A stretch of DNA of 64,000 nt from an uncultured Gammaproteobacteria bacterium (GTDB lineage: Bacteria; Patescibacteriota; Patescibacteriia; CAZSQN01): positions 12,633 to 76,632 of the forward strand of contig CAZSQN010000002.1 in NCBI GenBank assembly GCA_964609095.1, read 5' to 3'. Shown here in pieces: positions 6,195 to 59,628 of this stretch; position 1 is the stretch's first letter, and every line of letters starts with the position of its first letter. The translations under genes were made by a program, and so were the position numbers. The notes under the pieces were generated by a model. The model was not told where the DNA came from. It did not search any database and saw nothing but the letters and a program-made list of their open reading frames with translations.

Positions 6195-6300
6195 TCATAA
6201 TGCAAATATCGCGAATGAATGCGAATACCACGAATATGCAAATACAGTATTCGCATATTCGCGTGATATTGGCATTAGATTCGCATTATTCGCATTATAT
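6195..6300. promoter_or_regulatory. ATTCGCAT/ATGCGAAT repeat block with imperfect palindrome centred near 6247, immediately upstream of dnaB
   Basis: the 27-bp element TATTCGCATATTCGCGTGATATTGGCAT at 6248-6275 is also present in reverse complement at 39857-39883 upstream of msrB; tandem ATTCGCATT units run up to the dnaB ATG. Confidence 0.4.
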
Positions 6301-6303
6301 TTT

Positions 6304-11147: not shown

Positions 11148-11868
11148 ATCTCGTCCCTACACGGGTTGCGGAAAGAGTGTAGCTGCCGCCTTCCTCTCCT
11201 CTCTCCGATATATTCATACACCGCAAGGTGTATGTTCCCGCGGAAAAGAAACGATAACGAATCGTGGCATTGCCAGACCAATCGTACAAATCGTGGTTTT
11301 GGAAAACATTGCCTTGCGCATCAGCAAGAACTAAACCGGAATAAAAGTTGCCGCTCTTAATCTTCAGCCGAAAGATAACATCATCTCCGGCTCTGGCGAA
11401 AAACTTCCAATCTTGGCTTAGCGGACCAGTACTTCTATTACTAACAGTTCCGCTCACGACCTTGTTCATTCCGAGCACTCGTTCATCAGTACCGTTCGCG
11501 CAGACCGGACAGGCGGAACACGCCCGCGCCGGAGCTGGCGCTGGCGCGTTGGTATCAAGCGCAACTCGCGAATGAAGATCGCGGGCAACTTCTTGCGCAA
11601 ACTCGCGGCGATATTGGCCGGCAACTCGCGACACGCGCCAAACAACTTTCCTAGAAATATCCTCAATCTGGTTCTCGTCCAGCGCTGAATTGTTTGACAT
11701 CACTCCGATAACCGTTGCCGGAATTATGCCAATCAGCAGATAGACGGCCACTCGCGGCCACTTGCGCAGCGCCGAGAATCGCCACATGAGCTTGTCGTTC
11801 TGCTCTCGCAGTTTCTCGTTCTCCGCCAAAAGCTTGGCAACTTCGTCGTTTCTGTACGGTGCGTCCAT
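11146..11868 (-). CDS. membrane-anchored protein with N-terminal coiled coil and C-terminal pre-peptidase C-terminal (PPC)-like beta domain, paralog B1
   Basis: N-terminal 23 aa MDAPYRNDEVAKLLAENEKLREQ identical to 11923..12666; one TM; C-terminal DDVIFRL...GTYTLRC...GSYTLSA pattern typical of PPC domains. Confidence 0.6.
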   Translation of the reverse strand: MDAPYRNDEVAKLLAENEKLREQNDKLMWRFSALRKWPRVAVYLLIGIIPATVIGVMSNNSALDENQIEDISRKVVWRVSRVAGQYRREFAQEVARDLHSRVALDTNAPAPAPARACSACPVCANGTDERVLGMNKVVSGTVSNRSTGPLSQDWKFFARAGDDVIFRLKIKSGNFYSGLVLADAQGNVFQNHDLYDWSGNATIRYRFFSAGTYTLRCMNISERGEEGGSYTLSATRVGTR

Positions 11869-11922
11869 CTCTTTCCTCCTCGCCCTGAACGAAGTTGAAG
11901 GGCTTGTTGCCGGGTTTATTGA

Positions 11923-12666
11923 TTATGGGAGTCTCGCGGAAAGCGTGTAATTACCTGACCAAACATCTGTCCAAATATTTTTTGGACCGTAAATACCGCA
12001 CCTCGCAGCAATCAAATATTGTCCGGTGGAGGTAAATGCATAGATAAGCGTGGCGTTGGTGCCAGATCCCGAATTCTCGTCCTCGGCGACCCGCCTTCCA
12101 TCTGGGGCATACAATTGAATAAAAGGATCAAGATTCACATCGGTGGACTTCATTCTAAAAACAACACGGTCGCCGACTCGGGCGTTAAACCGCCACCAAC
12201 CCCTTTCGGGATCAATTGTGGCTTGTTGGCGATAACCTTTTCTGGAATGAATTTGGCCGCGAACAACTTGTCCGAGGCGCAATTCGTCTTGCGCTTGCCT
12301 GTTTTGGCCGGCTGGCTGTTTGGCAACGGTTCTTGCCTGGCGCCGTTCCAATTCCGCGCTTACGGCAAATTGGATATCTTCCCGCAGAGTTGCTGAAATT
12401 CGGCGCGAAACGCGGTCAGAAGTTTGCGCAACAATAACAGCGCGGTCTTGATGTGTAAGCGTCTGAATCGCCTCTTGCCGCGCTGTCTTGTTTCCCGCTT
12501 CAAAAGCCGAGATACACAGAATCGCGCCAACAAGAAACAAAGCAACGCCAATCGGCCACTTCTTAACCAGAGCATAACGAGACATTATTCCATCATACTG
12601 CTCTCGCAGTTTCTCGTTCTCCGCCAAAAGCTTGGCAACCTCATCGTTTCTGTACGGTGCGTCCAT
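11923..12666 (-). CDS. membrane-anchored coiled-coil/PPC-like domain protein, paralog B2
   Basis: identical N-terminus to 11146..11868, with about 65 bp of near-identical DNA at 12604-12668 vs 11805-11870; C-terminal GDRVVFRM...GQYLIAARC...GNYTLSA. Confidence 0.6.
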   Translation of the reverse strand: MDAPYRNDEVAKLLAENEKLREQYDGIMSRYALVKKWPIGVALFLVGAILCISAFEAGNKTARQEAIQTLTHQDRAVIVAQTSDRVSRRISATLREDIQFAVSAELERRQARTVAKQPAGQNRQAQDELRLGQVVRGQIHSRKGYRQQATIDPERGWWRFNARVGDRVVFRMKSTDVNLDPFIQLYAPDGRRVAEDENSGSGTNATLIYAFTSTGQYLIAARCGIYGPKNIWTDVWSGNYTLSARLP

Positions 12667-12679
12667 CTCTTGCCTCCTT

Positions 12680-18097: not shown

Positions 18098-19435
18098 TTA
18101 AGGGATAAGCTTTCTTCTATGCGTTCGACGGTAGAAGGCAATCGCAAATCTGTGCGCTTCGTCGCGCACAGCCACTAAAATATCTTTAAATTGATTGGCA
18201 ACTCTGGCCATTTCCGGATTATCTTTAGGCAAAATAAGCTCATCCTTTTTCCTGTCTACGCCTTTGGCAATGCCAACAATAGGAATGCCCAGATGATATG
18301 CTTCCAATACTTTCTTAGCCGCGTTAACTTGCGGAACTCCCCCGTCAATTAAAATTATTTCCGGCAATTCCCAGCCGGCACCGCGATGGGCAAAACGCCG
18401 CGTTAGCACCTCGCGAAGCATGGCCGTATCATTAGCGCTTTTTACGGTTTTAATTCTGAATTTGCGGTATTGGGATTTATCCGGCTCCCCGCCCGAAAAT
18501 ACTACCATGCTTCCGACTGCAGAAGTTCCGGAAATATTGGAAATATCATAACCCTCAATGCGGCCGTAGATATTAATGATATTCGCTTCTCCGCCTGCGG
18601 CGGACCAACCGTAGGTTGGCGCATCTCTCGTCAGCGCGGAAATATCCCGTATATTCTCCAGGGCGTAAAGGCGATTTCTTATTTTTGCCGCGTCCTCAAA
18701 TCTTTCTTCTTTAACGGCTTTTGCCATTTCTTTTTTAAACCCGCGAATCACTTGTCCTTTTTTGCCTTCAAAAAATAAAATCAGCCCGCGGATATTTTTT
18801 TTATATTCTTTTGGGGAAATCGCGCCGACGCAGACCCCTGGGCATTTTTTAAGGTGATAATCAAAACATGGTTTAGAATTTAGAATTTGGAATTTGGAAT
18901 TTGGAATTTTTGGCGGTTCGCAATCGCTCCATGGGAAACTCTTGCGCAAGATATTCAAGGCGGCGCGGAGCGCGTTGGGGCTCAAAAACGGCCCGAAAAC
19001 ACGCTTGAATTTGGAATTTGGAATTTGGAATTTGTTTCGGATTTCGGATTTCGTGCTTCGGATTTGATGTAACTCGTGTCCTCTCATCAACAATAATTTC
19101 GGATATTTATCTTTTGTGATAACTAAGTAAATAAAGCTCCTGTCATCTTTTTGCAGCACATTATATTTGGGCCACAATTCTTTGATTTTTTCCGCTTCCA
19201 AAATTAAGGCCTCCACCACGGTTTTAACGCGGATATAATCAATTGACTTTATTTCTTTTATAAGCTCGTAAACTTTACCGTTTTGCGGACGAGAAAAGTA
19301 GCTGCCGACGCGCGTTCGGAGCATTGATGCCTTGCCAACGTAAATAACTTTGCCCGAACTGTCTTTCATCAGATAAACGCCCGGGCTTGCCGGCAAAATT
19401 GAATTTTTTATTTTGATGCTTTTGGGAATTGACAT
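18098..19435 (-). CDS. uvrC: excinuclease ABC subunit C, short form lacking the C-terminal (HhH)2 domain
   Basis: GIY-YIG GVYLMKDSSGKVIYVGKA; endonuclease-domain block LIDGGVPQVN...VRDEAHRFAIAF; protein ends about 20 aa after this; contains in-frame (GAATTTG)n and (TTCGGAT)n heptamer repeats encoding IPNSKFQILNSK. Confidence 0.85.
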   Translation of the reverse strand: MSIPKSIKIKNSILPASPGVYLMKDSSGKVIYVGKASMLRTRVGSYFSRPQNGKVYELIKEIKSIDYIRVKTVVEALILEAEKIKELWPKYNVLQKDDRSFIYLVITKDKYPKLLLMRGHELHQIRSTKSEIRNKFQIPNSKFKRVFGPFLSPNALRAALNILRKSFPWSDCEPPKIPNSKFQILNSKPCFDYHLKKCPGVCVGAISPKEYKKNIRGLILFFEGKKGQVIRGFKKEMAKAVKEERFEDAAKIRNRLYALENIRDISALTRDAPTYGWSAAGGEANIINIYGRIEGYDISNISGTSAVGSMVVFSGGEPDKSQYRKFRIKTVKSANDTAMLREVLTRRFAHRGAGWELPEIILIDGGVPQVNAAKKVLEAYHLGIPIVGIAKGVDRKKDELILPKDNPEMARVANQFKDILVAVRDEAHRFAIAFYRRTHRRKLIP

Positions 19436-20390: not shown

Positions 20391-23039
20391 TTATTTCAAA
20401 ACTTTTTTTAAATATCCTCCCGTATAAGAGTTCGCGTTCCGCGCCACTTCTTCCGGAGTTCCAACGGCCACCACTTCTCCGCCGCGAAGCCCGCCCTCCG
20501 GCCCAAGGTCAATAATGTAATCGCTGCATTTTATAACATCCAGATTGTGTTCAATCACCAGCACGGTGTTTCCGGCTTTAACCAATCTTTCCAAAACTTC
20601 AATTAATTTTTTCACATCGTCGTAATGCAATCCGACGGTCGGCTCGTCCAAAAGATACAACGTTCTGCCCGTGCTTCTCCTCGCGAGCTCGGCGCCAAGC
20701 TTAATCCTTTGCGCCTCTCCGCCGGAGAGAGTGGTCGCGCTCTGCCCCAGCTCCAGATAATCCAGTCCCACCTCGCGCAAAATCTTCAGCCGCTGATAAA
20801 TAAAAGGGATATCGCGGAAAAATTCCGCCGCTTCTTCAACGGTCATTTTCAGCGCGTCATAAATTGTTTTGCCTTTATACGCAATTTCCAATGTTTCGTT
20901 GGCAAATCGTTTCCCTTTGCAAATATCGCATTTCACGTAAACCGTCGGCAAAAAATGCATTTCTATGGCAATAGTCCCGTTTCCTTCGCAGTGCTCGCAG
21001 CGCCCGCCGGCCACATTGAAAGAAAATCTCCCCACCTTCCATCCGCGCATACGCGCCTCAGGAGTGGCGGCAAACAATTCCCGGATATAAGTCCAGGCGC
21101 CGGTATAGGTTGCCGGATTGCTCCGCGGGGTGCGGCCGATGGGCGATTGGTCAATGACTATCACTTTATCAAGAAAGTCCAGCCCGGAAATTGATTTATG
21201 CTTGCCCGCGCGATAACTGGTTCCGTTTATTTTATTGGAGGCGGCGTTAAAAAGCACATCGTTCATCAAGCTGGATTTGCCCGAACCGGAGACACCGGTA
21301 ATAGAGATAAGCCGCCGCAAAGGAATCTCCACGTCAATTTTCTTTAAATTGTTTTCCTCCGCGCCTGTTATCTTAATGCGCTCGCGGGAATGCTTGCGGC
21401 GGCTCTCCGGAACCGGAATTTTTTTCTTGCCCAAAAGATATTGAAGCGTGATCGAGTTAGCCACGTCCTTTTTGGAATCCAACAATTTGGGCATATCGCC
21501 TATCGCCACGATTGATCCGCCGTGCGCGCCGGCGCCGGGACCGATATCCACCAGATAATCCGCCGCCGAAATAGTATCTTCATCATGCTCCACGACGATG
21601 ATTGTGTTCCCTAACCCTCTTAAATGCTCCAATGTTTCAATGAGCCGGGCATTATCTCGCTGGTGCAGACCGATGGTGGGTTCGTCCAGCACGTAGAGAG
21701 CGCCGGTAAGCCGCGAACCAACTTGCGAGGCCAAACGAATTCTCTGCGCTTCGCCGCCGGAGAGCGTGCCGGCGGCGCGATCCAAAGTAAGATAATCCAA
21801 TCCCACATCCAACATGAATTTAAGACGATTTTTTATTTCTCGAATTGCCGGTTCGGCGATTTCAAATTCCGTAGCGGCGAGCTTTTGCTCCAATCCGGAA
21901 ATAAAACCGTGCGCTTCATCAATTGTAAGCGAAACAAGGTCAACGATATTTTTCTCCATAATTTTGACCGACAGCGATTCATCGCGCAAACGAAGTCCGC
22001 GGCACTTGGGGCACGGTTCATCGATAAAAAATGATTCTTTGCCCAAGCCGTGGCAGAGTTCACAAGCGCCATAAGGGCTGTTAAAGGAGAAAAGGCGCGG
22101 CTCAATTTCCGGAAAAGCAAATCCGTCATCGGGACAAGAAAATTTCGCTGACATAATCTGTTCCTCGCCATTTTCATAAACAACTGTTACCGCGCCATTG
22201 CCATGCTTTAAGCCGTTTTCTATTGCTTCAACCAAATGAGTTCTAAACGGCTTATTCCCCTCTATCGGCCAGCCAATCGGAACTTTATCAACCTCAAGCT
22301 CAATGGTATGCGCCTTATAGCGCGAGAGCGTGATGCGCTCGGATAAATTTTTTAATTTGCCGTCAACGCGCACCTGGCTGTAGCCGGAATTATAAAAATC
22401 ATAAAGCATCTGATAATACTCCCCTTTTCTGCCGCGCACGACAGGGGCGAGAACAACAATCGAGTTGAGAGTTGAAAGTTGAGAGTTGAGAGATTTTTTA
22501 GATTTTGTCCGCCGGCTGGCGGATTGAATTTGTTTCGGATTTCGGACCTGCCCCGTACCGAACTTGTTCTGGTGCGGGGTTTCGGATTTCGGATTTTCAT
22601 GAAGAGAAGTTATTCTCTTCACGATCGTCTCCGCCATCTCATCTACTGTCATTTTTCTAATCGGCTTGCCGCAGCGGACGCAATGAGGCCGCCCGACGCG
22701 GGCGAAAAGCACGCGCAAATAATCGTAAATCTCCGTGATTGTGGCCACGGTTGAACGCGGATTGGACGAATGCGCCTTTTGGTCTATGGAAATCGCCGGC
22801 GATAATCCTTCTATCTCGTCAACATCCGGCTTATCCATTCCGCCCAAAAATTGGCGGGCATAGGCGGAGAGCGACTCCACATATCTTCTCTGCCCTTCGG
22901 CAAAAATGGTGTCAAACGCCAAGCTGGACTTGCCGCTTCCGGATAGCCCCGTGAAAACTATAAGTTTATTTCTTGGCAGCTCAAGCGATATGTTCTTTAA
23001 ATTGTGTTCGCGGGCTCCTTTGATGATTATTTTGTCCAT
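20391..23039 (-). CDS. uvrA: excinuclease ABC subunit A
   Basis: start at [17 protein letters not shown] (the upstream 19 aa of the ORF translate a heptamer repeat); two ABC ATPase modules, [14 protein letters not shown] and [12 protein letters not shown], with zinc fingers; in-frame (GAGTTGA)n/(TTCGGAT)n repeats at 22462-22600. Confidence 0.95.
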
Positions 23040-25182: not shown

Positions 25183-25270
25183 AAAAAATACGAATTTACG
25201 AATATGATACGAATCCGCGAATATGCGAATTCGCGCGATTCGCACCAATCTGTAGAGATTCGTATTGCTT
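25183..25270 (-). promoter_or_regulatory. tandem ATTCG(C/T)(A/G)T octamer repeats immediately upstream of the uvrB start
   Basis: minus-strand sense: GCGAATCGCGCGAATTCGCATATTCGCGGATTCGTATCATATTCGTAAATTCGTATTTTTT-ATG; same motif family as upstream of dnaB, msrB and the GxxExxY gene. Confidence 0.4.
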
Positions 25271-25945: not shown

Positions 25946-26035
25946 TTTGCTTCTCCTTTGTTTAAAGGCCTGCAAAATTTATATCAAAACTTAATAAAAT
26001 AGTCAATTAAAAAAGGTATACTAAAAAGTTGATTT

Positions 26036-26127
26036 CCTATATAACGCACTATAGTGCGTTATATAAGCAGGTCGGTTTTTTAGTTATATTTTTAAGAAAT
26101 AAAAACCCCGAGTTTATTCGGGGTTGC
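26036..26127. repeat. duplicated intergenic module: perfect 28-bp palindrome TATATAACGCACTATAGTGCGTTATATA (26038-26065) plus terminator hairpin CCCCGAG-ttta-TTCGGGG
   Basis: about 92 bp nearly identical to 27048-27145; the palindrome sits about 65 bp upstream of the 25397..25945 start and the hairpin just 3' of 26143..26886. Confidence 0.6.
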
Positions 26128-26142
26128 GTTCCAAAGAACTAA

Positions 26143-26886
26143 CTAACGATGTCTTGCGGAAAGAGCGTATGAACCGAAATTTCTGTACTCATGATGCTGA
26201 TAACCGCAAAAAACAACATAAGTACCCGAGGATGAAAATGTATATTCTAACGAGATATAGGAACTATCCACAAACGAAGTATAAGCTAACCTTTGGTGAT
26301 TTTCTCTAAAGAGAGAAATATGCGGATAGAGGATCGAGCCCACGGTTGCCTGCATGCGAAAAACAACTCGTTCGCCTGCTTGCGCGTGAAACAAATACGA
26401 TTCCCCGTCTCCTCCGACAAGTCGTCCATAAATCACTTGATTCAAGGGAAGGACGGGCACGACCGGCGCTTTAGTCAAATCACGGCCTTCGGCCGACACA
26501 ACGGGTCGTGCTTGCGTCTCGACCAAACGCGAGGCCTCAAACTCTTCCCGCGCCTCACGGACGCCTTCGCGGTAGGCGGACATGACAATCTTTTCCTTGA
26601 GATAGACGGCTGATTGCCGGTCATGGGCAAGTCGAGGATTTCGGCTGATTTGCGCCACAACTTCGCGCGCAAAATCTTGCGAGTTTGGACCGCTGAAAAA
26701 CAACGGAGCGAAAAATGCGGCGCTTACCGAACCTACGACCAGAGAAATAAAAATTGTAAAGCCGAAACCATACTTCAGTGTTCCTCTGGCTTCTGCGTAC
26801 TTGGCAGCCAGATCAGCGCTATCCTTCTTCAGCTTTTCGTTTTCATCCACCAATTCCTGAATTCGCCCGTCTTCTCTGAAGACCAT
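26143..26886 (-). CDS. membrane-anchored coiled-coil/PPC-like domain protein, paralog B3
   Basis: start at MVFREDGRIQELVDENEKLKK with AAAGGAGGAAGTT SD; TM helix; C-terminal GERVVFRM...GTYVVFCG...GSYALSA. Confidence 0.55.
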   Translation of the reverse strand: MVFREDGRIQELVDENEKLKKDSADLAAKYAEARGTLKYGFGFTIFISLVVGSVSAAFFAPLFFSGPNSQDFAREVVAQISRNPRLAHDRQSAVYLKEKIVMSAYREGVREAREEFEASRLVETQARPVVSAEGRDLTKAPVVPVLPLNQVIYGRLVGGDGESYLFHAQAGERVVFRMQATVGSILYPHISLFRENHQRLAYTSFVDSSYISLEYTFSSSGTYVVFCGYQHHEYRNFGSYALSARHR

Positions 26887-27047
26887 AACTTCCTCCTTTG
26901 GTTGTTGAGTATTGGAAAAGAGCATCAAGACCGTATCATAAATTATGTATTTTTGTCAATACTATTCGCTCATACTATTCGCTCATTCGCGCGAATTAGA
27001 GCAAGTGCGGACTTTTATTCGTAGCACAATTAACCAAAAAGTTCATT

Positions 27048-27145
27048 GCTTATATAACGCACTATAGTGCGTTATATAAGCAGGTCGGTTTTTTAGTTAC
27101 TTTATATTTTTAAGAAATAAAAACCCCGATTTTATTCGGGGTCTT
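27048..27145. repeat. second copy of the palindrome (27051-27078) plus terminator module
   Basis: near-identical to 26036-26127; placed between 27148..27666 (3' end) and the promoter region of 26143..26886; an ATTCGCGCGAAT palindrome lies just before it at 26985-26996. Confidence 0.6.
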
Positions 27146-34981: not shown

Positions 34982-35072
34982 ATACGGATGATCGGTTAAA
35001 AAATAATTTATAAAACCTTTTTGCGCAAACTGCGCAAATCTAAAATTTTTCTTATTCTACCATTCGCGCGAA

Positions 35073-35333
35073 TTAGAGCAGGTTAATGATCTGCTTGGCT
35101 TCCGGCTTGAGATTCGGAGCCAAACTATAAAACATCTGCAAACTCCTCTGCTCTTTCTCCAGAATATCAGCACCGGCCAAAATCCTCAAATGCTTTGAAG
35201 TTGCTTTAAAAGAAAGTCTAATCGCTTCCGCTGCTTCAGATACCGGCGCTTCTTTATGAGATTTAATATACTTAAGTATCGCCAGCCTGCGGTGATTGGC
35301 CAAAGCCTTTAGAGTTTTTTCAATCTTTTTCAT
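35073..35333 (-). CDS. ArsR/SmtB-family winged-helix transcriptional regulator
   Basis: 86 aa; LANHRRLAILKYI...VSEAAEAIRLSFKATSKHLRIL HTH; flanked on both sides by ATTCGCGCGAAT palindromes (35062-35073 and 35391-35402). Confidence 0.65.
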   Translation of the reverse strand: MKKIEKTLKALANHRRLAILKYIKSHKEAPVSEAAEAIRLSFKATSKHLRILAGADILEKEQRSLQMFYSLAPNLKPEAKQIINLL

Positions 35334-35471
35334 AAGTTTATTTAAAATAAGACTTAATCCATTCTAAAAAGAGCATAACACTATTCTACCATTCGCGCGA
35401 ATTAGAGCAGAGAGAGTGTGGGCGTGCGGTTGCAGAGAGGCAAGAAATCTCTTATAATAAGGCATTAATAT

Positions 35472-35966
35472 ATGCAGGTACCAAAAAGAAAACCGGGGAA
35501 ATTCGCCCATCTCAAAGCCGACCAGAATATTACTGAAGAGAAGTTTGAAGAGCTTAAAGCCGAACTGGAACGGCTTAAGAAATTCAGCTTGCCAGCCGCG
35601 GCCGAAGAAGTCGCGACTCTCGCGCAAATGGGCGACTTTTCCGAAAACGCCGCTTACCAGATGGCCAAAGGCCGGCTCCGCGGAATAAACCAACGGATTT
35701 TGGAATTGGAAGACCGGATAAAATACGCGGTAATAATCAAGCCGTCAAAAAACGCCCAGACCGTCGGGCTTGGGCATAAAGTAACTATTGAATCAGGAGG
35801 AGAGTCAAAAACTTATCTAATACTCGGCTCGGCGGAAACAGACCCCTTAAAAGGAATTATTTCCCAAAACTCCCCATTGGGCTCCGCCCTTATGGGCCGC
35901 AAACTCGGCGACAAAATAAAAATCCCGCCAAAAGGAGTGGAGTGGAAGATTTTGAAGATAGAATAA
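35472..35966 (+). CDS. greA: transcription elongation factor GreA
   Basis: 164 aa; GDFSENAAYQMAKGRLRGINQRILELED; the last 60 bp are duplicated at 36905-36966 beyond an inserted island. Confidence 0.9.
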   Translation: MQVPKRKPGKFAHLKADQNITEEKFEELKAELERLKKFSLPAAAEEVATLAQMGDFSENAAYQMAKGRLRGINQRILELEDRIKYAVIIKPSKNAQTVGLGHKVTIESGGESKTYLILGSAETDPLKGIISQNSPLGSALMGRKLGDKIKIPPKGVEWKILKIE

Positions 35967-35995
35967 ATTCAAATCGCAACTATTCTACCATTCGC

Positions 35996-36034
35996 ACGCC
36001 TGCCCCGTAGTGAGCTGCGCTCTACTACTGGGGA
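35996..36034. repeat. 38-nt near-palindromic hairpin element (left copy) inserted into a copy of the CTATTCTACCATTCGCGCGAATTAGAGCAG unit
   Basis: ACGCCTGCCCCGTAGTGAGCTGCGCTCTACTACTGGGG; an inverted partner at 36737-36775 flanks the NUDIX gene. Confidence 0.5.
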
Positions 36035-36051
36035 ATTAGAGCAGGTGGGAA

Positions 36052-36648
36052 TTAAATTTCTATATTTTCTAAAATATATTTTAACGGATAAACAATGTCG
36101 TTTCTGGTCTTTATTTCCTCCGGCTTTAACCAACGGAAACTACTGGCTTCGTCATTTAATCGCAAATTTTCTTTTTCCGAATTAATCTTCACCAAATACA
36201 AATGCCATAAATGGTGATCGCTCCCCCTACGGCACGAATCGCCGGGCAGATGAAATTCTTTCACAAATTTAAAATCTTCTTTTGGCAATTCCAAACCTAT
36301 TTCTTCCATTAATTCTCTCCGCACCGCAATAAGCGCGTCTTCTCCCTTATCAACATGGCCGGCGGGCAAGGCGTAAGCAAAAGGGAAAGTCGCGCGCATG
36401 ACTACAAGCCATTCGCCTTTTTCGTTTAAAATAATAGCTCCGGTACTTTCATGCCAATAATTCTTGTCTTCATCTATCCACCAATTTACAGCGTTATCAA
36501 TAACCAAAGACCTTTCTTCCGTGGCGCCGCAGCTCTTGCAAAAATAATAAGTCTTTCCGTCTTTAAAAACTCTTTCCACTTTTGCGGAATTGCACTTTAG
36601 GCAATATTGCCCTTCTATTTTTATATCTATATTTGAATTTATTTTCAT
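36052..36648 (-). CDS. NUDIX hydrolase with N-terminal CxxC-x16-CxxC zinc ribbon
   Basis: Nudix box GHVDKGEDALIAVRRELMEEIGLEL; N-terminal CLKCNS...CKSCGA; carried on an inserted, IR-flanked segment. Confidence 0.75.
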   Translation of the reverse strand: MKINSNIDIKIEGQYCLKCNSAKVERVFKDGKTYYFCKSCGATEERSLVIDNAVNWWIDEDKNYWHESTGAIILNEKGEWLVVMRATFPFAYALPAGHVDKGEDALIAVRRELMEEIGLELPKEDFKFVKEFHLPGDSCRRGSDHHLWHLYLVKINSEKENLRLNDEASSFRWLKPEEIKTRNDIVYPLKYILENIEI

Positions 36649-36736
36649 AAAAAAACCATATTACGCTACTCCTGTTTAGAATAAACATAACATGGTTAGG
36701 TCAATTTCTACAAAACTTTTACTCTATTCTCTTATT

Positions 36737-36775
36737 CCCCAGCAGTAGAAGCTTTGCTTCACTACGGGGCAGGCG
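36737..36775. repeat. right inverted copy of the 38-nt hairpin element
   Basis: CCCCAGCAGTAGAAGCTTTGCTTCACTACGGGGCAGGCG; its reverse complement matches 35996-36034 at both arms, with a diverged centre. Confidence 0.5.
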
Positions 36776-36904
36776 CGCGAATAAGGAGTACAGTTTAAGG
36801 TTATAAACCTTAGTCTTATTCGTACGAATTTGACTAGGGTTAGATTGACTGTCTCTTAGTCGTGCGATTAAGAGAGTAGTTGGAATTGGAAATCGGGCAG
36901 GCAC

Positions 36905-36992
36905 CTCGGCGACACAATAAAAATCCCACCCAAAAAGGGGTGGAGTGGAAGATAGTGAGGATAGAATAAATGCTCCACGTGGAGCATTTTTT
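36905..36992 (+). pseudogene. displaced duplicate of the greA 3' end plus its rho-independent terminator
   Basis: GGCGACACAATAAAAATCCCACCCAAAAAGGGGTGGAGTGGAAGATAGTGAGGATAGAATAAA is about 85% identical to greA 35905-35966, followed by the hairpin ATGCTCCACGTGGAGCAT + T6; flanked by the TAGTCTTATTCGTACGAA inverted repeat at 36811-36829 and 37014-37031. Confidence 0.55.
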
Positions 36993-37043
36993 AAAACACT
37001 ATTCTCTTAAGAACCTTTCGTACGAATAAGACTATAATTTTAA

Positions 37044-37778
37044 TTATTTTAACGCTTGCTGAATTCGTTTAAATCCGTTTCTGCTTATGTTATTTTGTGA
37101 TAAAACCGGCGATCTACTCTTTAAAATTATGATATTTTTATAAGTTTTTAATTCTTTTACTTTCTCAAACCATTGACCCTTCTTCATTATTACTATTAAA
37201 GCTTTACGACTAATTGCCTGTCTAACTAAACCAAAATTATATTTTTGACACTCCAGTATTTTACCTAAAGGCCTATAATTTCTAGAATGGTAAGGAAAAA
37301 ATTCTATACAACAAATCTTTTTTGAAATATTCTTATAGTCTTCTTTATTTTTAATAAAATGTTGCCAAACCTTTAGCCAATATCTAAACCCGCCGTATAA
37401 TCTATAAGCGGGATTTAAGTCATAAAACGAATATTCTAATTCTTCGCGCAAATTATTTTTAAGTATATCTTTTTTTAATTTGGGATAAACTTTCAAAGCA
37501 TGATCCTCTTCATCTTCAAATCCTGGAGGAACATCAGAACCCGGGTTTAACTGTAATAAAATAATCTTTGTATTAAATGGATTACCCTGAAAAGGAACAG
37601 GCAAACTATTGGTATCTATTTTGTGTTCCGGCCTACGCTTTTCTTTTTCATTAATATCATCAATAATCTTCTTATCTTCATCTAATAAATAAGGCGGCGA
37701 TTTACGATTAAATTTTCTCCACGGATTTATCTTATTTAATCTTTCTTCCATATTGCTTTGGAAAATACTCTTTTCCAA
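37044..37778 (-). CDS. hypothetical protein, island gene P1 (AT-rich, no recognisable family)
   Basis: 244 aa; conserved-looking blocks LPVPFQGNPFNTKIILLQLNPG and CCIEFFPYHSRNYRP; overlaps P2 by 47 bp. Confidence 0.5.
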   Translation of the reverse strand: MEKSIFQSNMEERLNKINPWRKFNRKSPPYLLDEDKKIIDDINEKEKRRPEHKIDTNSLPVPFQGNPFNTKIILLQLNPGSDVPPGFEDEEDHALKVYPKLKKDILKNNLREELEYSFYDLNPAYRLYGGFRYWLKVWQHFIKNKEDYKNISKKICCIEFFPYHSRNYRPLGKILECQKYNFGLVRQAISRKALIVIMKKGQWFEKVKELKTYKNIIILKSRSPVLSQNNISRNGFKRIQQALK

Positions 37779-38346
37779 CCTGCCATAAATATTTATCTAT
37801 CTGTTTTAAATCAAATGATTCTAAATCATAATGTTTTCTAAAATTAGACAGAATATCTTTAAATTTTGAGTATATTTTCAAATCCTCGTTATCAAAATCA
37901 AACTCCTTTTCTTTACAATGAATGAGCATTTTTGCTACAAATGAGTCATAAATTGGATACTCTGTTGGATTATGGTGGCTACAATATTTTGTTGCAAATG
38001 AATACAAATGTGATTCTTTAGCTTTTTTGCTTATATGAATTTTATGACCGGATGCAATTTTCTCAACTAAATCAAGATTGTTATTTCTCAAATCGTTATC
38101 AATATTCAAACTCACAATATGTTTAGCTAAAACAAATATTTTGCGAATTTGTGTACTATAAAATTGGTTCAAGGTGCAAACTTTGACTAAGACATCGTCT
38201 AAATCAGTGTTAAATGGATATGTTTTTGTAAACAATTTTTTTAAGCTACTCTCTTGCAAACTATAATCATCGAAAGTTTCCCATGCCTTGAGATAATGTT
38301 CAACTTCTTTCAACGATGGTTTTGGTATATTTAAATTTTTTGACAT
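37732..38346 (-). CDS. hypothetical protein, island gene P2 (AT-rich, no recognisable family)
   Basis: 204 aa; strongly AT-biased codons unlike flanking genes; possibly translationally coupled to P1. Confidence 0.5.
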   Translation of the reverse strand: MSKNLNIPKPSLKEVEHYLKAWETFDDYSLQESSLKKLFTKTYPFNTDLDDVLVKVCTLNQFYSTQIRKIFVLAKHIVSLNIDNDLRNNNLDLVEKIASGHKIHISKKAKESHLYSFATKYCSHHNPTEYPIYDSFVAKMLIHCKEKEFDFDNEDLKIYSKFKDILSNFRKHYDLESFDLKQIDKYLWQVGKEYFPKQYGRKIK

Positions 38347-38413
38347 ATTATTCCTTCTTCTTAAGTGCGAGGCAAGTGGAGTTAGAGCAAAGGCATTCTG
38401 CGGATTTTTAAAC

Positions 38414-39835: not shown

Positions 39836-39885
39836 AACGCGAATAATTTTATTTATGCCAATATCACGCGAATATGCGAATATCG

Positions 39886-40272
39886 CTATTCGGAAACTGA
39901 CGGATTGACAATCCTCTTAATATGTAAAGATTTCTGATTAAAGTTCGCCAAGAGCACGAGTTTGCGTTGCGCGGCTGTCTGATACCTCCGTGCTTGAAAA
40001 TAATCTTCACGACTAACAAATCTTTTGGCCTTAATCTCCAATATAATCTTATCGTCAATCAGAAAATCAACTCTGTTTCTTCCTGGTACTTCGCCCTCAA
40101 ATGACTCGGCTAATCTTAATTCTCGCTTATAGGGTATTTCGAGCTTCTTTAGCCACCCCTCTATCCGGTCGCAGTATTGCTTCTCATTGCAGAATCGCCC
40201 CAATTCATTGTGGGTAGCGAATAGAACGCCGTTAATGCGATAAGACAGTTCAGGATAAATCACTTTATTCAT
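39886..40272 (-). CDS. GxxExxY family protein (PD-(D/E)XK-like fold)
   Basis: [25 protein letters not shown]...[18 protein letters not shown] matches the GxxExxY / DUF4433-unrelated PD-DExK small-protein pattern. Confidence 0.7.
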
Positions 40273-40318
40273 AGTATTCGCATATTAGCGTCATTCGCAT
40301 CCATTCGCAAGATTCGCG

Positions 40319-45615: not shown

Positions 45616-45737
45616 TAGATCTTACGGGAATCGAAGGACGCGAGATAAACCGAGCTGGCGCAGGTTTTGGCGCGCAGCGTCCAGGCTCGAGTCGGAGCGA
45701 GAGGATTCCCATCACCCGCTTAGATTTTACGGGAATC
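45599..45737 (+). repeat. tRNA-Gly 3'-end direct duplication (34-bp DR at 45599-45632 and 45704-45737) bracketing a conserved 71-bp insert
   Basis: DR = GATTCCCATCACCCGCTTAGAT(C/T)TTACGGGAATC, comprising the tRNA 3' 16 nt plus 17 nt of downstream hairpin; the insert ends ...CCAGGCTCGAGTCGGAGCGAGAGG and is homologous to the insert at the tRNA-Lys locus. Confidence 0.6.
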
Positions 45738-47803: not shown

Positions 47804-49106
47804 TTATTTCCTCGCGGGCGATTGTACGGTCATCCCAGGGAATCTTTCTTCCTTCAGCCAAAACCATTACCTGCTCGCTGCCCTTGCCCGTGATTAGGAC
47901 AATATCGCCTTCGGCCGCCGTTTGAATCGCTTTGCCAATTGCCGCCCGCCTGTCTAAAATCACAAAAAGGTTTTCGCCGGTTTTTTTGCCGGCCTCCTCC
48001 GCTCCGGCCGCGACTTCTTTGGCAATTAAAAGCGGGTCATCGTCATAAGGATCGTCGGTGGTCACAATCACAATATCAACATTTTCTCCGGCCAGAAGCC
48101 CGAGAATGCGCCGCCTGCTCACATCCCTACCTCCGCCGGTAGAGCCAAAAACCTGAATCAATCTTTTGCGCGGCAATAACTTAATTGTTTCATAGAGCTG
48201 GCGGGTTGATTCCGGTTCATGCGCGTAATCAACAATAACGGTAAAATTTTGTCCCGCTCTCACAAATTCCATCCGTCCGGCAATCGTATTTATCTCGGCT
48301 AGAACATCCGCCGCCACAGATATCCGAATGCCTTGCGAAGCTGCCGCCGTTATAGCCGCCAGCGCGTTATAAACATTGCCCCTGCCTATCAATTTCAAAT
48401 TTATATCCATACCATCAATTTTGAATCTTGAGCCATCCGGACTCAACTCCACATCTTCCGCCAAAAAAGCTTTTAGCTTATAGCTTATAGCTTTTAGCTT
48501 CATGCCATATCCGTATTGCTCATCCGCCCAAAAATTAAGAAAATATTCCGCGTTTTCATCGTCCAAATTGGCAACAATAATCTTTTTGCCGTTCCCGACT
48601 TTTTTCTTCGCGCTCTCTTTAAGAGAAGCAAATAATTTTCCTTTTGCTTTCTTATAATTCTCAAACCCTCCGTGCGATTCTATATGTTCCGGCGTCAGAT
48701 TGGTAAAAACGGCGACATCATAATCAATGCCTGCGTGCCGCGATTGCGCCAAGCCCTCGGAAGATGACTCCACGATGGCGTAAGAGCAACCGGCGACAAC
48801 CATCTCGCGGAGCATTTTTTGCAAAGCAAACCGGCCGAGCATGGTCATTTTGGTGGCGTTCAGCCATTCGCGTCCGGCGATTTTGAAAATGGCGGTTGAA
48901 GAAAGCCCAACTTTATATCCGGCATCCTCCAGAATTTTGGCGAGCATATAAGCGGTCGTGGACTTTCCCTTGGTGCCGGTAATCCCGATGACAATCATCT
49001 TACGCGAGGGATGGCCGTACCAAAGGGACGCACTCAGAGCCAAAAACAAATGATAAACGGTCAAAAAACCGCGAGGAAGAATCTTTTTCACCAGTTTCTT
49101 TAGCAT
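47784..49106 (-). CDS. murE: Mur ligase, UDP-MurNAc-tripeptide ligase (MurE-like), with N-terminal TM helix in place of the usual N-domain
   Basis: GITGTKGKSTTAYMLAKIL P-loop, DYAHEPES and GRMEF blocks; short hydrophobic N-terminus; in-frame (AGCTTAT)n heptamer repeat at 48478-48510 encoding KLKAISYKLKA. Confidence 0.7.
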   Translation of the reverse strand: MLKKLVKKILPRGFLTVYHLFLALSASLWYGHPSRKMIVIGITGTKGKSTTAYMLAKILEDAGYKVGLSSTAIFKIAGREWLNATKMTMLGRFALQKMLREMVVAGCSYAIVESSSEGLAQSRHAGIDYDVAVFTNLTPEHIESHGGFENYKKAKGKLFASLKESAKKKVGNGKKIIVANLDDENAEYFLNFWADEQYGYGMKLKAISYKLKAFLAEDVELSPDGSRFKIDGMDINLKLIGRGNVYNALAAITAAASQGIRISVAADVLAEINTIAGRMEFVRAGQNFTVIVDYAHEPESTRQLYETIKLLPRKRLIQVFGSTGGGRDVSRRRILGLLAGENVDIVIVTTDDPYDDDPLLIAKEVAAGAEEAGKKTGENLFVILDRRAAIGKAIQTAAEGDIVLITGKGSEQVMVLAEGRKIPWDDRTIAREEISNLLRV

Positions 49107-49182
49107 AACTCAATCATATCTTTTCCGGCCGCAAAATTCAACCTCGTACAATATAAAAAATCCACGTTAAGAAACGCGGATG

Positions 49183-50607
49183 TTACTTCAGCTTCTTTAC
49201 CTCTTTTACAAACTGCTCTCCCCTATCAAACTCGTTTTGAAAAAGTCCAAAACTGGCAGCCGCCGGGGAGAGAAGAACAACATCCCCTTTTTTGGCGAAT
49301 TTTATTGCGCAACGCACCGCGCGAGCCATATCAGCCGCTTCTTCATAAGGCATTTTTAAGAATTTTTTGATTTTATCGGTCGCGCCTCCGGGCAAAAATA
49401 CAACCGATTTTGCGTATTTTTTAATTGCTAATGCAAGCTCGCTAAACTCCAACTTTTTATCCGACCCCCCGCAAATGAGAACAATCCGTCTTTTGGCTTT
49501 TAGCTTATAGCTTTTAGCTTTTAGCGTTTTAAGGGCGGCGATGGTCGCATCTGGCGTTGTCGCGGTTGTGTCATTTATAAATCTAATCCCCTTGATATTT
49601 CTAATCACTTCCATTCTATTCGGCAATCCTTTGAAATTTTTTAAAACTTTTTTAATGGCGGCATTTGATATTCCCATAATTTTTGCCGCGCAAACCGCGG
49701 AGAGCGCATTACCCAAATTGTGTTCTCCGGCAATAGCAGTATCTGAAACTGAAGCAACCGCCTCTTCTTCTCCGCCAAACCTAAAAATTATTTTTTTGTT
49801 CTTTGGAAAACATCCGTTCTCTTCTGAAAAAGGTTTTAACGAAAACCAAAATCTGCGGCTCGGCGCTCGCTTTCCCATCTCTCGTGTCCATTTATTATCA
49901 TAATTTAAAATCACCGCGTCTTCCGGCGATTGATATTTGTAAATCAGGGCTTTGGCCGCGGCATATTGCGCCATTCCTTTATAAGTATTCAGGTGGTCCC
50001 GCATTATATTGGTGATGACGGCTATATGCGGGCTTTTTTTAATTTCTTCCAAACCTTCGCATTGCCAGGAAGAAAGCTCCAAAACGGCTATTGAACCTTC
50101 GTGCATCTTGTCCAAAAAATTAAGGGGCGAACGGAGAATGTTCCCGCCGAGCTCTGCGTGCCTTTCTTTTGATTTCAGCATTTCATAAGCAAGCGCGCTG
50201 GTCGTGCTTTTGCCGCGCGTGCCCGTAACGCCAATAACAGCCCCCGGCATAAGAGCCAAAAAAATGCCGGTGTCGGATAAAATCTTCGCTCCGGCAGATC
50301 TCGCCGCCGCAAGATATGGAGAATTGGCCCGCGCGCCGGGATTTCGGATAACAATATCGGCGGATTTGAAATCGCTGGTTCGGTGACGACCCAAAATGAG
50401 CTTATAGCTTATAGCTTTTAACTTTTTAGCAAATCTTTTTAACTCGCTGATTTGTTTTTTTAATTCCTCTTCATTTTTAAGGTCAGTAATAGCCACTTCC
50501 GCTCCTTTGGAGCTAAAAAACTTAGCGGCGGAAATGCCGCTGCCTTCTTTATACAAACCCAATCCCATTATCACCACCTTTTTGCCTTTAAAATCGTCCA
50601 TGGTCAA
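49183..50607 (-). CDS. murD: UDP-N-acetylmuramoylalanine--D-glutamate ligase
   Basis: N-terminal Rossmann KKVVIMGLGLYKEGSG; GVTGTRGKSTT; two in-frame (AGCTTAT)n repeats at 49497-49530 and 50398-50430 each encoding LKAKSYKLKA/KLKAISYKL. Confidence 0.8.
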   Translation of the reverse strand: MTMDDFKGKKVVIMGLGLYKEGSGISAAKFFSSKGAEVAITDLKNEEELKKQISELKRFAKKLKAISYKLILGRHRTSDFKSADIVIRNPGARANSPYLAAARSAGAKILSDTGIFLALMPGAVIGVTGTRGKSTTSALAYEMLKSKERHAELGGNILRSPLNFLDKMHEGSIAVLELSSWQCEGLEEIKKSPHIAVITNIMRDHLNTYKGMAQYAAAKALIYKYQSPEDAVILNYDNKWTREMGKRAPSRRFWFSLKPFSEENGCFPKNKKIIFRFGGEEEAVASVSDTAIAGEHNLGNALSAVCAAKIMGISNAAIKKVLKNFKGLPNRMEVIRNIKGIRFINDTTATTPDATIAALKTLKAKSYKLKAKRRIVLICGGSDKKLEFSELALAIKKYAKSVVFLPGGATDKIKKFLKMPYEEAADMARAVRCAIKFAKKGDVVLLSPAAASFGLFQNEFDRGEQFVKEVKKLK

Positions 50608-54812: not shown

Positions 54813-55002
54813 GAAAACACTCCGCTTATGGCGGAGTGTAATCATATGACCCGGCTGGGATTCCTCTCGCTCCGACTCGAGCCTGGGCGCTATGCACTAA
54901 ACGCTCGCCAGCTCGCATTTACTCGCACTCTTCGAATCCCAATTCTATTTTGAAAACACTCCGCTTATGGCGGAGTGTAATCATATGACCCGGCTGGGAT
55001 TC
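54813..55002 (-). repeat. tRNA-Lys 3'-end direct duplication (51-bp DR at 54813-54863 and 54952-55002) bracketing an 88-bp insert homologous to the tRNA-Gly-locus insert
   Basis: DR = GAAAACACTCCGCTTATGGCGGAGTGTAATCATATGACCCGGCTGGGATTC, comprising the tRNA 3' 17 nt plus a downstream terminator hairpin; insert (minus-strand sense) ...GCGAGCTGGCGAGCGTTTAGTGCATAGCGCCCAGGCTCGAGTCGGAGCGAGAG. Confidence 0.6.
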
Positions 55003-58430: not shown

Positions 58431-58443
58431 CTTCTTGAATTGC

Positions 58444-58560
58444 TTCCGCGCACCGCCCGCCTTCGTTGTCATATGGGTTCGCGAGATCATCGTCATTTCA
58501 CCTGTTCACGTTGACCCTGCCATTGTACTCGTTCGCATTCAAGGCGTTAGGCCCGAAACG
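58444..58560 (-). other. DGR template repeat (TR)
   Basis: 117 bp homologous to 58915-59031; every one of about 20 differences is an adenine on the minus strand of this copy versus a non-adenine in the other; in the target reading frame it encodes AAC/AAT-rich RFGPNALNANEYNGRVNVNR*NDDDLANPYDNEGGRCAE with an internal TGA; 3' end shares a GC-rich block GGCGGGCGGTGCGCGGAAG with the VR. Confidence 0.8.
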
Positions 58561-58899: not shown

Positions 58900-59628
58900 T
58901 TACATCTTGACCACTTCCGCGCACCGCCCGCCAGCGCAGTCATATGGGTACGCGAGAGCATCGTCATCCCACCTGCCCACGCAGACCCTGCCAATGGACT
59001 CGTTCGCACGCAAGGCGCCAGGCCCGAAACGGGTGCGGAGCCAAGACCAAGTTCTATTATCAAGCATGACGCTGGTTGCGGCTTTGTGAACCCACCAGAC
59101 AAGCGCATACTCTTCCAGCGAAAGCAAGTTCAATCTTTGCTCTTTGGTGAGTTTATTCCAGCTCGTGCCCAAGCGAGGACACTCTTGGGCAACTTCGGCC
59201 CAGAACCAGTAACCGGTTTGGGCTGGTTCCCAGACGATTTTCTTCCTGTCGCTCTCGTCCACGACAGTCCAGTGTTCGTCCTGGCCAACGGCCTTCATCA
59301 AGGCCTCGTAGGAGACCTCTGAGGTTGGAGGGCGATAGAACAGGTCTTGATTCATGGCCTGGCGCCTCTTGTACTCTTCATCTGGAACAGGAGGAACTGG
59401 TATTTGAAGGGAAAAACCAAGCTTGTAGTACCAGTCCATGAACCAGTTGCGGCGATTCGTGGCAAAGTCGCCGGAGGCAAAGGTTTTTGCGCCTTCCTGC
59501 TCCCTGCTCTTTGAGAGGTTCAAAACCGCTTCCTGGATCTGCTCGGCCGTTAGACCAAGCGAGATACCGAATTGCACCAGCTGAACAGGGGTGAGAGGAA
59601 CTGCCGCGGGGGTACGATATGCGGACAT
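58900..59628 (-). CDS. DGR target (variable) protein, VR at C-terminus (58915-59031)
   Basis: 242 aa; C-terminal ...RFGPGALRANESIGRVCVGRWDDDALAYPYDCAGGRCAEVVKM aligns codon-for-codon with the TR, with substitutions only at TR AAC/AAT/GAA/TGA adenines (N to G, N to R, Y to S, N to I, N to C, N to G, * to W, D to A, N to Y, N to C, E to A). Confidence 0.75.
   Translation of the reverse strand: MSAYRTPAAVPLTPVQLVQFGISLGLTAEQIQEAVLNLSKSREQEGAKTFASGDFATNRRNWFMDWYYKLGFSLQIPVPPVPDEEYKRRQAMNQDLFYRPPTSEVSYEALMKAVGQDEHWTVVDESDRKKIVWEPAQTGYWFWAEVAQECPRLGTSWNKLTKEQRLNLLSLEEYALVWWVHKAATSVMLDNRTWSWLRTRFGPGALRANESIGRVCVGRWDDDALAYPYDCAGGRCAEVVKM
58915..59031 (-). repeat. DGR variable repeat (VR)
   Basis: see the TR entry; adenine-specific mismatch pattern; the 19-bp GC-rich IMH-like block is at the 3' end (58915-58933). 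Confidence 0.8.

Follow-up and report, generated by a model that had tools for sequence, protein, structure and literature searches.

Two copies of a 12-bp palindrome, ATTCGCGCGAAT, flank a small gene of the ArsR/SmtB family of regulators in a 64,000-nucleotide stretch of Patescibacteria DNA (contig CAZSQN010000002.1; the whole stretch is called the window here), and related ATTCGC repeats lie upstream of dnaB, uvrB, msrB and a GxxExxY gene. The question raised by this locus is whether palindromes and repeats are all bound by one regulator. The original prediction, made from the letters of the window, held that they are one operator family for one DNA-binding protein, most likely the adjacent regulator, which would link repair and oxidative-damage-repair genes into a regulon. 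Having compared the window with loci that carry the same gene elsewhere in the candidate phyla radiation (CPR), we consider it probable that there are two layers: that the palindrome is the operator of the adjacent regulator, and that the tandem arrays form a separate, lineage-specific repeat family.

The window is about 88% coding, as in a compact genome. The window is matched at 100% identity by contig JACOZF010000008.1 (GCA_016181485.1) and by assemblies of four independent read sets; loci L001-L005, likewise 100% identical, offered no polymorphism for strain comparison. The regulator protein is labeled by NCBI as belonging to a Candidatus Uhrbacteria bacterium, and the closest homologues of the neighboring GreA come from Buchananbacteria and other Patescibacteria, at no more than 67% identity. 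The GreA-anchored relatives (38 loci) were too distant and carried no regulator beside greA, and they were used as a negative control. The orthologous set was obtained by a metagenome scan, which yielded 80 loci carrying the regulator gene and 505,697 nucleotides in total.

The regulator gene and its flanking palindromes

Exact copies of the palindrome were found at the three predicted positions, on both sides of the regulator gene (35062-35073 and 35391-35402) and at 26985-26996. With at most one mismatch allowed, the window holds five matches compared with 0.96 expected, a number that was reached in none of 100 shuffles. The palindrome is the center of a larger unit, TATTCTACCATTCGCGCGAATTAGAGCAG, whose 29 nucleotides are 100% identical between 35053-35081 and 35382-35410 and 86% identical at 26976-27004. 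The predicted 30-mer occurs in exact form only at 35381, the copy at 35052 having T rather than C as its first base. The two units that flank the regulator gene are oriented as direct repeats. Scored in bits with an operator matrix of 28 nucleotides, which was applied to units and arrays alike, the three true units reached 42-43 bits and are the only operator-grade sites in the window: one at the regulator's own gene, one at its 3' end and one at a gene encoding a 247-amino acid protein. The upstream unit (35381..35410, minus strand; core 35391-35402; 43.5 bits) lies in the spacer that separates the regulator gene from the divergent greA. The downstream unit (35052..35081, minus strand; core 35062-35073; 43.1 bits) overlaps the end of the gene, the last base of its core being the first base of the TAA stop codon (35073-35075); a terminator-like hairpin follows at 35020-35038 and no -10 box lies behind the unit. 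The third intact unit (26975..27004, minus strand; core 26985-26996; 42.4 bits) is preceded by two ACTATTCGCTCAT repeats and is positioned about 100 nucleotides upstream of the 247-amino acid gene (26143-26886). Neither this gene nor the 85-amino acid gene downstream of the regulator matched a known family or had a homologue in the fetched loci. The 247-amino acid gene is enclosed by direct repeats of 110 nucleotides (26020-26129 and 27033-27142, 91% identity), and each repeat contains two terminator-like hairpins.

The gene between the two units (35073..35333, minus strand) encodes an 86-amino acid winged-helix protein, the proposed palindrome binder, which both its sequence and its fold assign to the ArsR/SmtB family. 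It scored 61 bits against NCBIfam NF033788 (cut-off 55), 31.6 against Pfam HTH_20 (cut-off 27) and 27 against HTH_5 (cut-off 22). The AlphaFold monomer model, with a predicted local distance difference test score of 91.8 and the topology a1-a2-a3-aR-b1-b2-a5, has helices at residues 4-12, 14-26, 31-37, 42-54 and 77-85 and a beta hairpin at residues 58-71. Foldseek matched the model to HlyU, SqrR, PagR, NolR and CzrA at template modeling scores of 0.76-0.82, with CadC also among the best matches and 4rs8 (AspA) also among the matches. We found 373 homologues across CPR; those at 59-72% identity come from many CPR classes, and the recognition helix LSFKATSKHL is unchanged in 28 sequences of this range. 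The window protein has no Cys, and the homologues carry no conserved set of His or Asp residues that could serve as metal or thiol ligands; the sole invariant His among the 28 homologues is H48, inside the recognition helix. The regulator thus appears to be either a sensor-less ArsR/SmtB member or one with another input, like some non-metal members of the family.

The site in orthologous CPR loci

Scanning the 80 orthologous loci with the ten specified bases of ATTCGnnCGAAT revealed 168 matches, whereas about 0.5 are expected. A match lies within 160 nucleotides upstream of the regulator gene in 71 of the 80 loci, and at the stop codon or within 120 nucleotides after it in 65; in 29 loci the core begins inside the stop codon itself. 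Just 27 of the 168 sites are elsewhere, most of them within a few kb, and several loci that lack a site are contig ends or carry sites split by a hairpin. Four loci reached via homologous proteins all show the element both before and after the gene. Both controls were at background: a single site turned up in the GreA loci that have no regulator gene (about 557 kb), and a scan of viral contigs returned 23 isolated single sites, a chance level, with no regulator gene. The arrangement of the regulator gene with two sites is conserved across many CPR classes. Sequence and orientation of the site are conserved as well, the consensus in gene orientation being aTTCTCTA-ATTCGCGCGAAT-nGGnGAATAa, in which an inner inverted ATTCG pair is framed by an outer ATTC and GAAT 8 bp away on each side. 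Our literature search for the motif, for CPR tandem repeats and for CPR regulators found nothing specific, and the motif is named in no paper of the library searched.

The upstream sites have a characteristic promoter geometry. A good -10 box follows the core by 9-40 nucleotides at 65% of upstream sites compared with 9% of downstream and 16% of other sites. At upstream sites the gap between core and -10 box has its mode at 22-25 nucleotides, and the -10 box often reads TGnTAnnnT. With this spacing, the outer GAAT takes the -35 position, and the core spans roughly -38 to -49. The window agrees with the main mode: the predicted regulator promoter (35361..35388, minus strand) has TAGAAT at the -35 position (35383-35388), a 16-nucleotide spacer and a -10 box TAGAAT (35361-35366), with TGtTATGCT at 35372-35380 as an alternative -10 box. 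We had also considered TGGTAGAAT, within the unit, as an extended -10 promoter; the candidate was discarded, as the orthologues put this hexamer at -35 and the real -10 box 22-25 nucleotides downstream. In 17 of 58 loci the -10 box ends 6-8 nucleotides before the ATG, which implies leaderless transcripts. Many genes in the window and in the upstream regions of loci L048-L127 lack a Shine-Dalgarno sequence and have a -10 box at this same distance from the ATG, a combination that suggests leaderless transcripts to be frequent.

A further link between protein and site came from covariation. Residue 65, which follows Q-R-S, is located in the turn of the beta wing in the model (residues 64-65). Most homologues carry Leu65, and the base at position -1 of their sites is A in 93 of 106 cases. 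When residue 65 is Ser, Gln or Ala, C predominates at -1 (15 of 23 sites, with A in just 2), and its mirror position +1 has G in 15 of the 23. With each distinct protein entered once, the table reads 47/6 for Leu and 1/10 for non-Leu proteins (Fisher p = 5e-7). The non-Leu proteins share 58-72% identity with one another and are equally close to Leu-type proteins, indicating that they represent several lineages and not one clade. Locus L113 (1740-3120) provides a natural comparison, since it contains two tandem paralogues and a truncated third N-terminal fragment: its Ser65 paralogue is flanked by CCTC, CCTT and ACTC sites, its Leu65 paralogue by three TCTA sites. Mismatches in the flanks show no strand bias (G.T versus A.C, 26 versus 19), indicating that the symmetry is kept at the level of DNA. 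Taken with the covariation, this suggests that a symmetric protein reads the double-stranded DNA directly, and both the mirrored covariation at -1 and +1 and the site's two-fold symmetry are consistent with a homodimer.

The same data bear on whether the unit works in the transcript, for example in termination, in RNA processing or as a hairpin that affects translation, and not as double-stranded DNA. The palindrome is able to form a hairpin, an insertion at the loop position is tolerated (see below), and downstream and other sites lie 3' of genes or between cistrons, 9-60 nucleotides before the next start, with a right arm that sometimes resembles AGGAG. Against this, the window units have only weak predicted folds (-5 to -7 kcal/mol, z about -0.4), two thirds of the sites have no arm complementarity past the core, and flank mismatches lack a strand bias towards G.U. 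The upstream sites precede the -10 box and hence are outside the transcript, and what is conserved is the sequence, which covaries with a protein residue, and not pairing alone. Rfam at gathering thresholds found only four tRNAs in the window and no match for the unit. We therefore rejected the RNA hairpin, a reading to which we attach next to no probability.

Together, the presence of the site before and after the gene in most loci, its spacing from the -10 box and the covariation at the wing tip favor the adjacent regulator as binder of the palindrome, as had been proposed, and the assignment of the palindrome as its operator is well supported by these comparisons. Specifically, we predict that the regulator's operator is an element of about 28 bp, aTTCtctA-ATTCGnnCGAAT-nnnnGAATa, with ATTCGCGCGAAT inside it. 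By analogy with solved members of the family, the regulator would most likely bind as a dimer that places its recognition helices in both ATTCG half-sites, and the tip of the beta wing would contact the base pair that borders the core. The upstream unit adjoins and overlaps the -35 position, so binding would most likely autoregulate the gene, repression by occlusion being the default reading. An inverted-repeat operator at the regulator's own promoter is supported by comparative evidence, namely the upstream sites, the -10 spacing and the covariation. At the stop codon, where no promoter follows, the most likely functions would be looping with the first unit, about 330 bp apart, or a roadblock to read-through.

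Several observations weigh against so simple an operator model. The downstream copy, which has no promoter, comes close to the upstream copy in conservation. A simple operator requires neither its strict placement on the stop codon nor the functional mix of the genes that follow the palindromes, which are co-directional. About 18% of the sites are perfect palindromes of 30-50 bp, with symmetric, lineage-specific arm extensions of 9-19 bp. The outer GAAT (+5 to +8) is conserved even at promoterless sites, which indicates that the site is larger than one dimer and that tandem half-sites are part of it; this keeps alive the idea that arrays of such half-sites could be operators. As for the sign of regulation, a core centered near -40 to -43 is also at a classical activator position, and HlyU, the nearest solved relative, is annotated as an activator. 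Finally, the orthologous sites were collected with a regular expression that required the exact core, which conditions the matrix on the core, and the metagenomic loci include near-duplicates, which were removed only where stated.

Some of these features would suit a different function, in which the palindromes, able to form cruciforms or hairpins, are mainly structural or recombinational boundaries of small gene modules, much as attC or pdif sites are, and the winged-helix gene is one such module or an accessory factor that binds the sites. The regulator gene lies between direct copies of the unit, and at 29 of 80 loci the second copy overlaps the stop codon; palindromes and genes alternate in runs in L073, L113 and L115; and the nearest GreA relative, L006, has an oxidoreductase gene abutting greA with no regulator gene between. 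The heterogeneous neighbor genes, the long perfect palindromes with their lineage-specific arms, the absence of promoters at downstream and other sites and a NUDIX gene with split units and a duplicate of the greA 3' end on its flanks (see below) fit this as well. Opposed to it are the fixed promoter geometry of the upstream sites and the protein-site covariation expected of a transcription factor and its operator. Among the genes scanned, and among those recorded within about 10 kb, there was no recombinase, integrase or Xer family, and no pair of filled and empty sites was found for any one module, synteny being poor anyway at these evolutionary distances. We hold module boundaries of this kind to be very unlikely. 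Slightly less improbable, in our view, though still a speculation, is that the sensor-less protein is a CPR-wide architectural factor rather than a usual local repressor and that its cruciform-prone palindromes mark the boundaries of small gene modules, its own gene first among them, serving as a roadblock or insulator and as a swap site for genes (NUDIX, PIF1, uvr, thioredoxin and others) and for a small hairpin element. An operator bound by the adjacent regulator is the reading that we prefer.

Hairpin insertions, tandem arrays and the proposed repair regulon

The split or diverged palindromes that had been noted near 35985 and 36722 are real, and each is interrupted by a hairpin of 35-37 nucleotides. 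The first split unit (35980..36044, plus strand) consists of CTATTCTACCATTCGCaCG, a 35-nucleotide hairpin at 35999-36033 (CCTGCCCCGTAGTG..CTACTACTGGGG) and AATTAGAGCAG, and sits between greA and the convergent NUDIX gene. The second (36722..36790, minus strand) contains a 37-nucleotide hairpin at 36737-36773, and its predicted fold has an energy of -27.9 kcal/mol (z -4.1). Both hairpins are GC-rich and inserted between ATTCGCRCG and AAT, in opposite orientations relative to the flanks. A third copy (22547..22579, plus strand) lies within a TTTCGGA array inside the uvrA reading frame, bringing the family, CCTGCCCCGTAG..CTAC..GGGG, to three copies in the window. Elsewhere in CPR we detected it in L008, L058-L060, L069, L077, L106 and L117, and it splits the regulator palindrome also in L058/L060, L059 and L077, so that at least four lineages show this event. 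Six of its 12 predicted stem pairs have compensatory changes. The split palindromes are the result of a small CPR-wide hairpin element landing repeatedly in the center of the palindrome.

The surroundings of the split units contain additional degenerate sites. Three weak palindromes (36808..37033), which had been missed before, are found in the low-GC stretch upstream of the NUDIX gene (34% GC over 36-38 kb): ATTCGTACGAAT at 36818-36829 and degenerate copies at 36852-36879 and 37006-37033, with matrix scores of 19.8, 20.7 and 10.3 bits. The 3' end of greA is duplicated (35911-35968 and 36914-36971, 79% identity), with the NUDIX gene and the split units enclosed between its two copies. The stretch 36000-38400 also carries a Fic/RhuM gene and a gene with a weak match to a Brig1-like glycosylase, and looks like an acquired island.

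ATTCGC clusters do lie upstream of all four genes named at the outset. Inverted arrays (6197..6301, plus strand) directly precede the ATG of dnaB (6304) and are predicted to form a hairpin of -40 kcal/mol (z -5.4). An ATTCG(C/T) array (25183..25270, minus strand) precedes the ATG of uvrB (25182), with a predicted hairpin of -36.5 kcal/mol (z -6.1) and a one-mismatch palindrome at 25229-25240. ATTCGC repeats also occupy the 50-nucleotide spacer between the GxxExxY gene, identified by TIGR04256, and msrB (39836..39885, minus strand; no significant fold) and, in inverted orientation relative to these, fill the 46-nucleotide spacer between msrA and the GxxExxY gene (40273..40318, plus strand). The GxxExxY/PD-(D/E)XK gene thus stands between msrA and msrB, bracketed by inverted ATTCGC arrays (39836-40318), and resembles an inserted cassette. 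The dnaB and msrB upstream regions share an identical segment, as had been described, with a length of 28 nucleotides and not 27 (6248-6275 and 39855-39882, 100% identity); the two copies are inverted on the plus strand and have the same orientation relative to dnaB and msrB.

These arrays behave as repeats. The hexamer ATTCGC is not enriched in the window (79 versus 84.7 expected) and the pentamer ATTCG/CGAAT is depleted to 0.6 of expectation (151 versus 248), while clusters of at least three half-sites number five compared with 0.96 expected (maximum of 5 in 200 shuffles), all of them intergenic. Tandem Repeats Finder returned about 27 arrays of 7-9-nucleotide units in at least nine families across 4118-62064, including AAACCCT, GTTTAGC, AGCTTAT, GGAATTT, TTTCGGA, GAGTTGA, ATTTCAG and others; strict arrays of 7-8-nucleotide units are 28-38 nucleotides each. 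Examples are at 4372-4399, 4715-4746, 9748-9784, 18872-19065, 22462-22596 and 48468-50417. The ATTCGC family, with a spacing of 8-13 nucleotides and 72-84% matches, fits the pattern of 7-nucleotide tandem units less strictly. Intergenic arrays, ATTCGC and others, extend to start codons and often form inverted pairs with stable predicted hairpins; pairs of GGGTTTA arrays (z -4.8 to -5.2) are comparable with the ATTCGC arrays in this respect. The same units recur at neighboring loci, which together with the identical 28-mer before dnaB and msrB indicates that arrays spread as copies. Other CPR loci hold similar arrays with other units. ATTCG arrays are equally rare in 537 kb of regulator loci and in GreA loci, with two in each.

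Ten of the 27 arrays are in frame within housekeeping genes, namely folD, a GT4 transferase gene, uvrC, uvrA and two Mur ligase genes. In uvrA (22462-22596, minus strand), GAGTTGA and TTTCGGA arrays and two hairpins make up an in-frame insert of 42 amino acids, which is absent from the solved UvrA proteins in the PDB and from those of CPR relatives L065 and L099. Arrays add 14-17 residues to UvrC, and in FolD they have overwritten variable helices with no change in protein length. The window UvrA also lacks about 115 residues that the solved proteins have (chain residues 304-420).

The most far-reaching form of the original idea is that palindromes and arrays are all operators of the regulator, which would then run a LexA-like CPR circuit over dnaB, uvrB, msrA/B and NUDIX. 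The arrays do repeat the ATTCG half-site with the 8-9 bp phasing of the operator's inner and outer half-sites; half-site clusters are enriched and confined to intergenic DNA; a one-mismatch palindrome lies inside the uvrB array; and pentamer depletion is what one expects if stray sites were harmful. In other genomes a palindrome lies about 150 nucleotides upstream of uvrB (L065), the downstream palindrome precedes uvrC (L087), the regulator is beside uvrA (L099) or msrA (L088) or has uvrC 1.5 kb off (L045), and an array of four ACGAAT precedes rubrerythrin (L061). The genes after palindromes include PIF1 (3), NUDIX (2), UVR (2) and thioredoxin/DsbA (2), and recurrent, though statistically weak, associations across genomes involve uvr genes, NUDIX, PIF1, thioredoxin/DsbA, msrA and rubrerythrin.

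Yet several observations speak against this. With the operator matrix all ATTCGC arrays, including those before dnaB and uvrB, scored below 8 bits compared with 42-43 for the true units, and their half-sites face the gene in the direction opposite to that of the conserved operator. The expected conservation in orthologous promoters did not appear, as no half-sites were present in the 130 nucleotides upstream of any of nine orthologous genes (dnaB twice, uvrB twice, msrA, uvrA twice and uvrC twice). The enrichment of uvr genes is statistically weak, with five in 537 kb of regulator loci versus one in 557 kb of GreA loci, and most genes adjacent to palindromes are unrelated to repair. Identity of the dnaB and msrB 28-mers, spacers included, indicates recent copying over selection for half-sites, and unrelated array families share the same architecture, ten arrays being in coding sequence. 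For these reasons the repair regulon is not supported and appears unlikely to us, and the proposal of one operator family for one protein is well supported for the palindrome but not for the tandem arrays. We conclude that the ATTCGC(A/G)T arrays are probably a lineage-specific repeat family, one of at least nine in this genome. Given the half-site and 8-bp phasing that they share with the operator, occupancy by the regulator is possible.

Other repeats in the window were observed apart from these families. A perfect direct repeat of 51 nucleotides (54813-54863 and 54952-55002) overlaps the 3' end of tRNA-Lys, and an inverted repeat of about 85 nucleotides (45626-45711 and 54856-54940) adjoins tRNA-Gly and tRNA-Lys; both may be traces of integration. 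A direct repeat of 86 nucleotides (11795-11880 and 12593-12678, 94% identity) spans the starts of two adjacent paralogous genes, and another of 118 nucleotides is found at 58443-58560 and 58914-59031 (85% identity).

Relation to known systems

The regulator shares fold and family with the non-metal ArsR/SmtB proteins HlyU, NolR, PagR and SqrR/BigR and with the autorepressor SdpR. Like these it is a small winged-helix protein of the dimer type, with an inverted-repeat site at its own promoter and its gene beside the site. With 86 amino acids it is shorter than the solved members that it matched (99 for PagR, 98-112 for HlyU and 122 for CadC/SmtB). What distinguishes it from the non-metal members and SdpR is the second site on the stop codon, the spacing of inner and outer half-sites by 8 bp and the CPR-wide arrangement. 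Two small DNA-binding proteins from plasmid systems for partition or copy control, the omega repressor of pSM19035, which is a ribbon-helix-helix protein, and the centromere-binding protein AspA of pNOB8, either cover successive 7-8 bp repeats, whether direct or inverted, or start at a palindrome and spread along the DNA. They offer a possible model of how the regulator might bind ATTCG arrays.

The small dispersed repeats of Nostoc, reportedly treated by Elhai et al. in 2008, are one comparison for the hairpin family of the window. Short tandemly repeated repetitive sequences (STRRs) with heptanucleotide units have been described in cyanobacteria, and heptamer repeats are known from Xanthomonas and Nostoc (PMC4692102). 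The window arrays resemble STRRs in that one genome holds several dispersed families of 7-nucleotide tandem units; STRR families likewise are mostly intergenic and vary in length and sequence between relatives. Unlike STRRs, the window arrays occur in Patescibacteria, are short (4-5 units), often form inverted pairs that abut start codons and are in frame in housekeeping genes in more than a third of cases, and the ATTCGC family has irregular spacing. The hairpin family has its counterpart in repetitive extragenic palindromic (REP) sequences of the GTAG type and in Rickettsia palindromic elements, many intragenic REPs being in replication and repair genes (PMC3733652). Similar to REPs, it is a small GC-rich stem-loop with compensatory stem changes, with copies inside repair genes and insertion into other repeats. 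Unlike in GTAG REPs, its GTAG is paired in the stem after CCCC and there is no unpaired terminal tag, and unlike REPs it repeatedly targets the center of one specific operator palindrome. No transposase family, and no REP-associated tyrosine transposase (RAYT), was recorded among the genes near hairpin copies, a search that did not scan the window exhaustively.

We know of no experimentally characterized transcription factors in CPR/Patescibacteria, which are largely uncultured. The analysis offers a protein, its probable 28-bp site, a candidate specificity residue (Leu65 or Ser65, paired with A or C) and a natural control in the form of two paralogues. It also corrects the appealing inference of a repair regulon as unsupported and draws attention to a genome-wide habit of short tandem arrays, some of them within essential genes. 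On the comparative evidence, the regulator and its palindrome would constitute a new, widely conserved autoregulated member of the ArsR/SmtB type, one that has a compound site and, unusually, another site on its stop codon.

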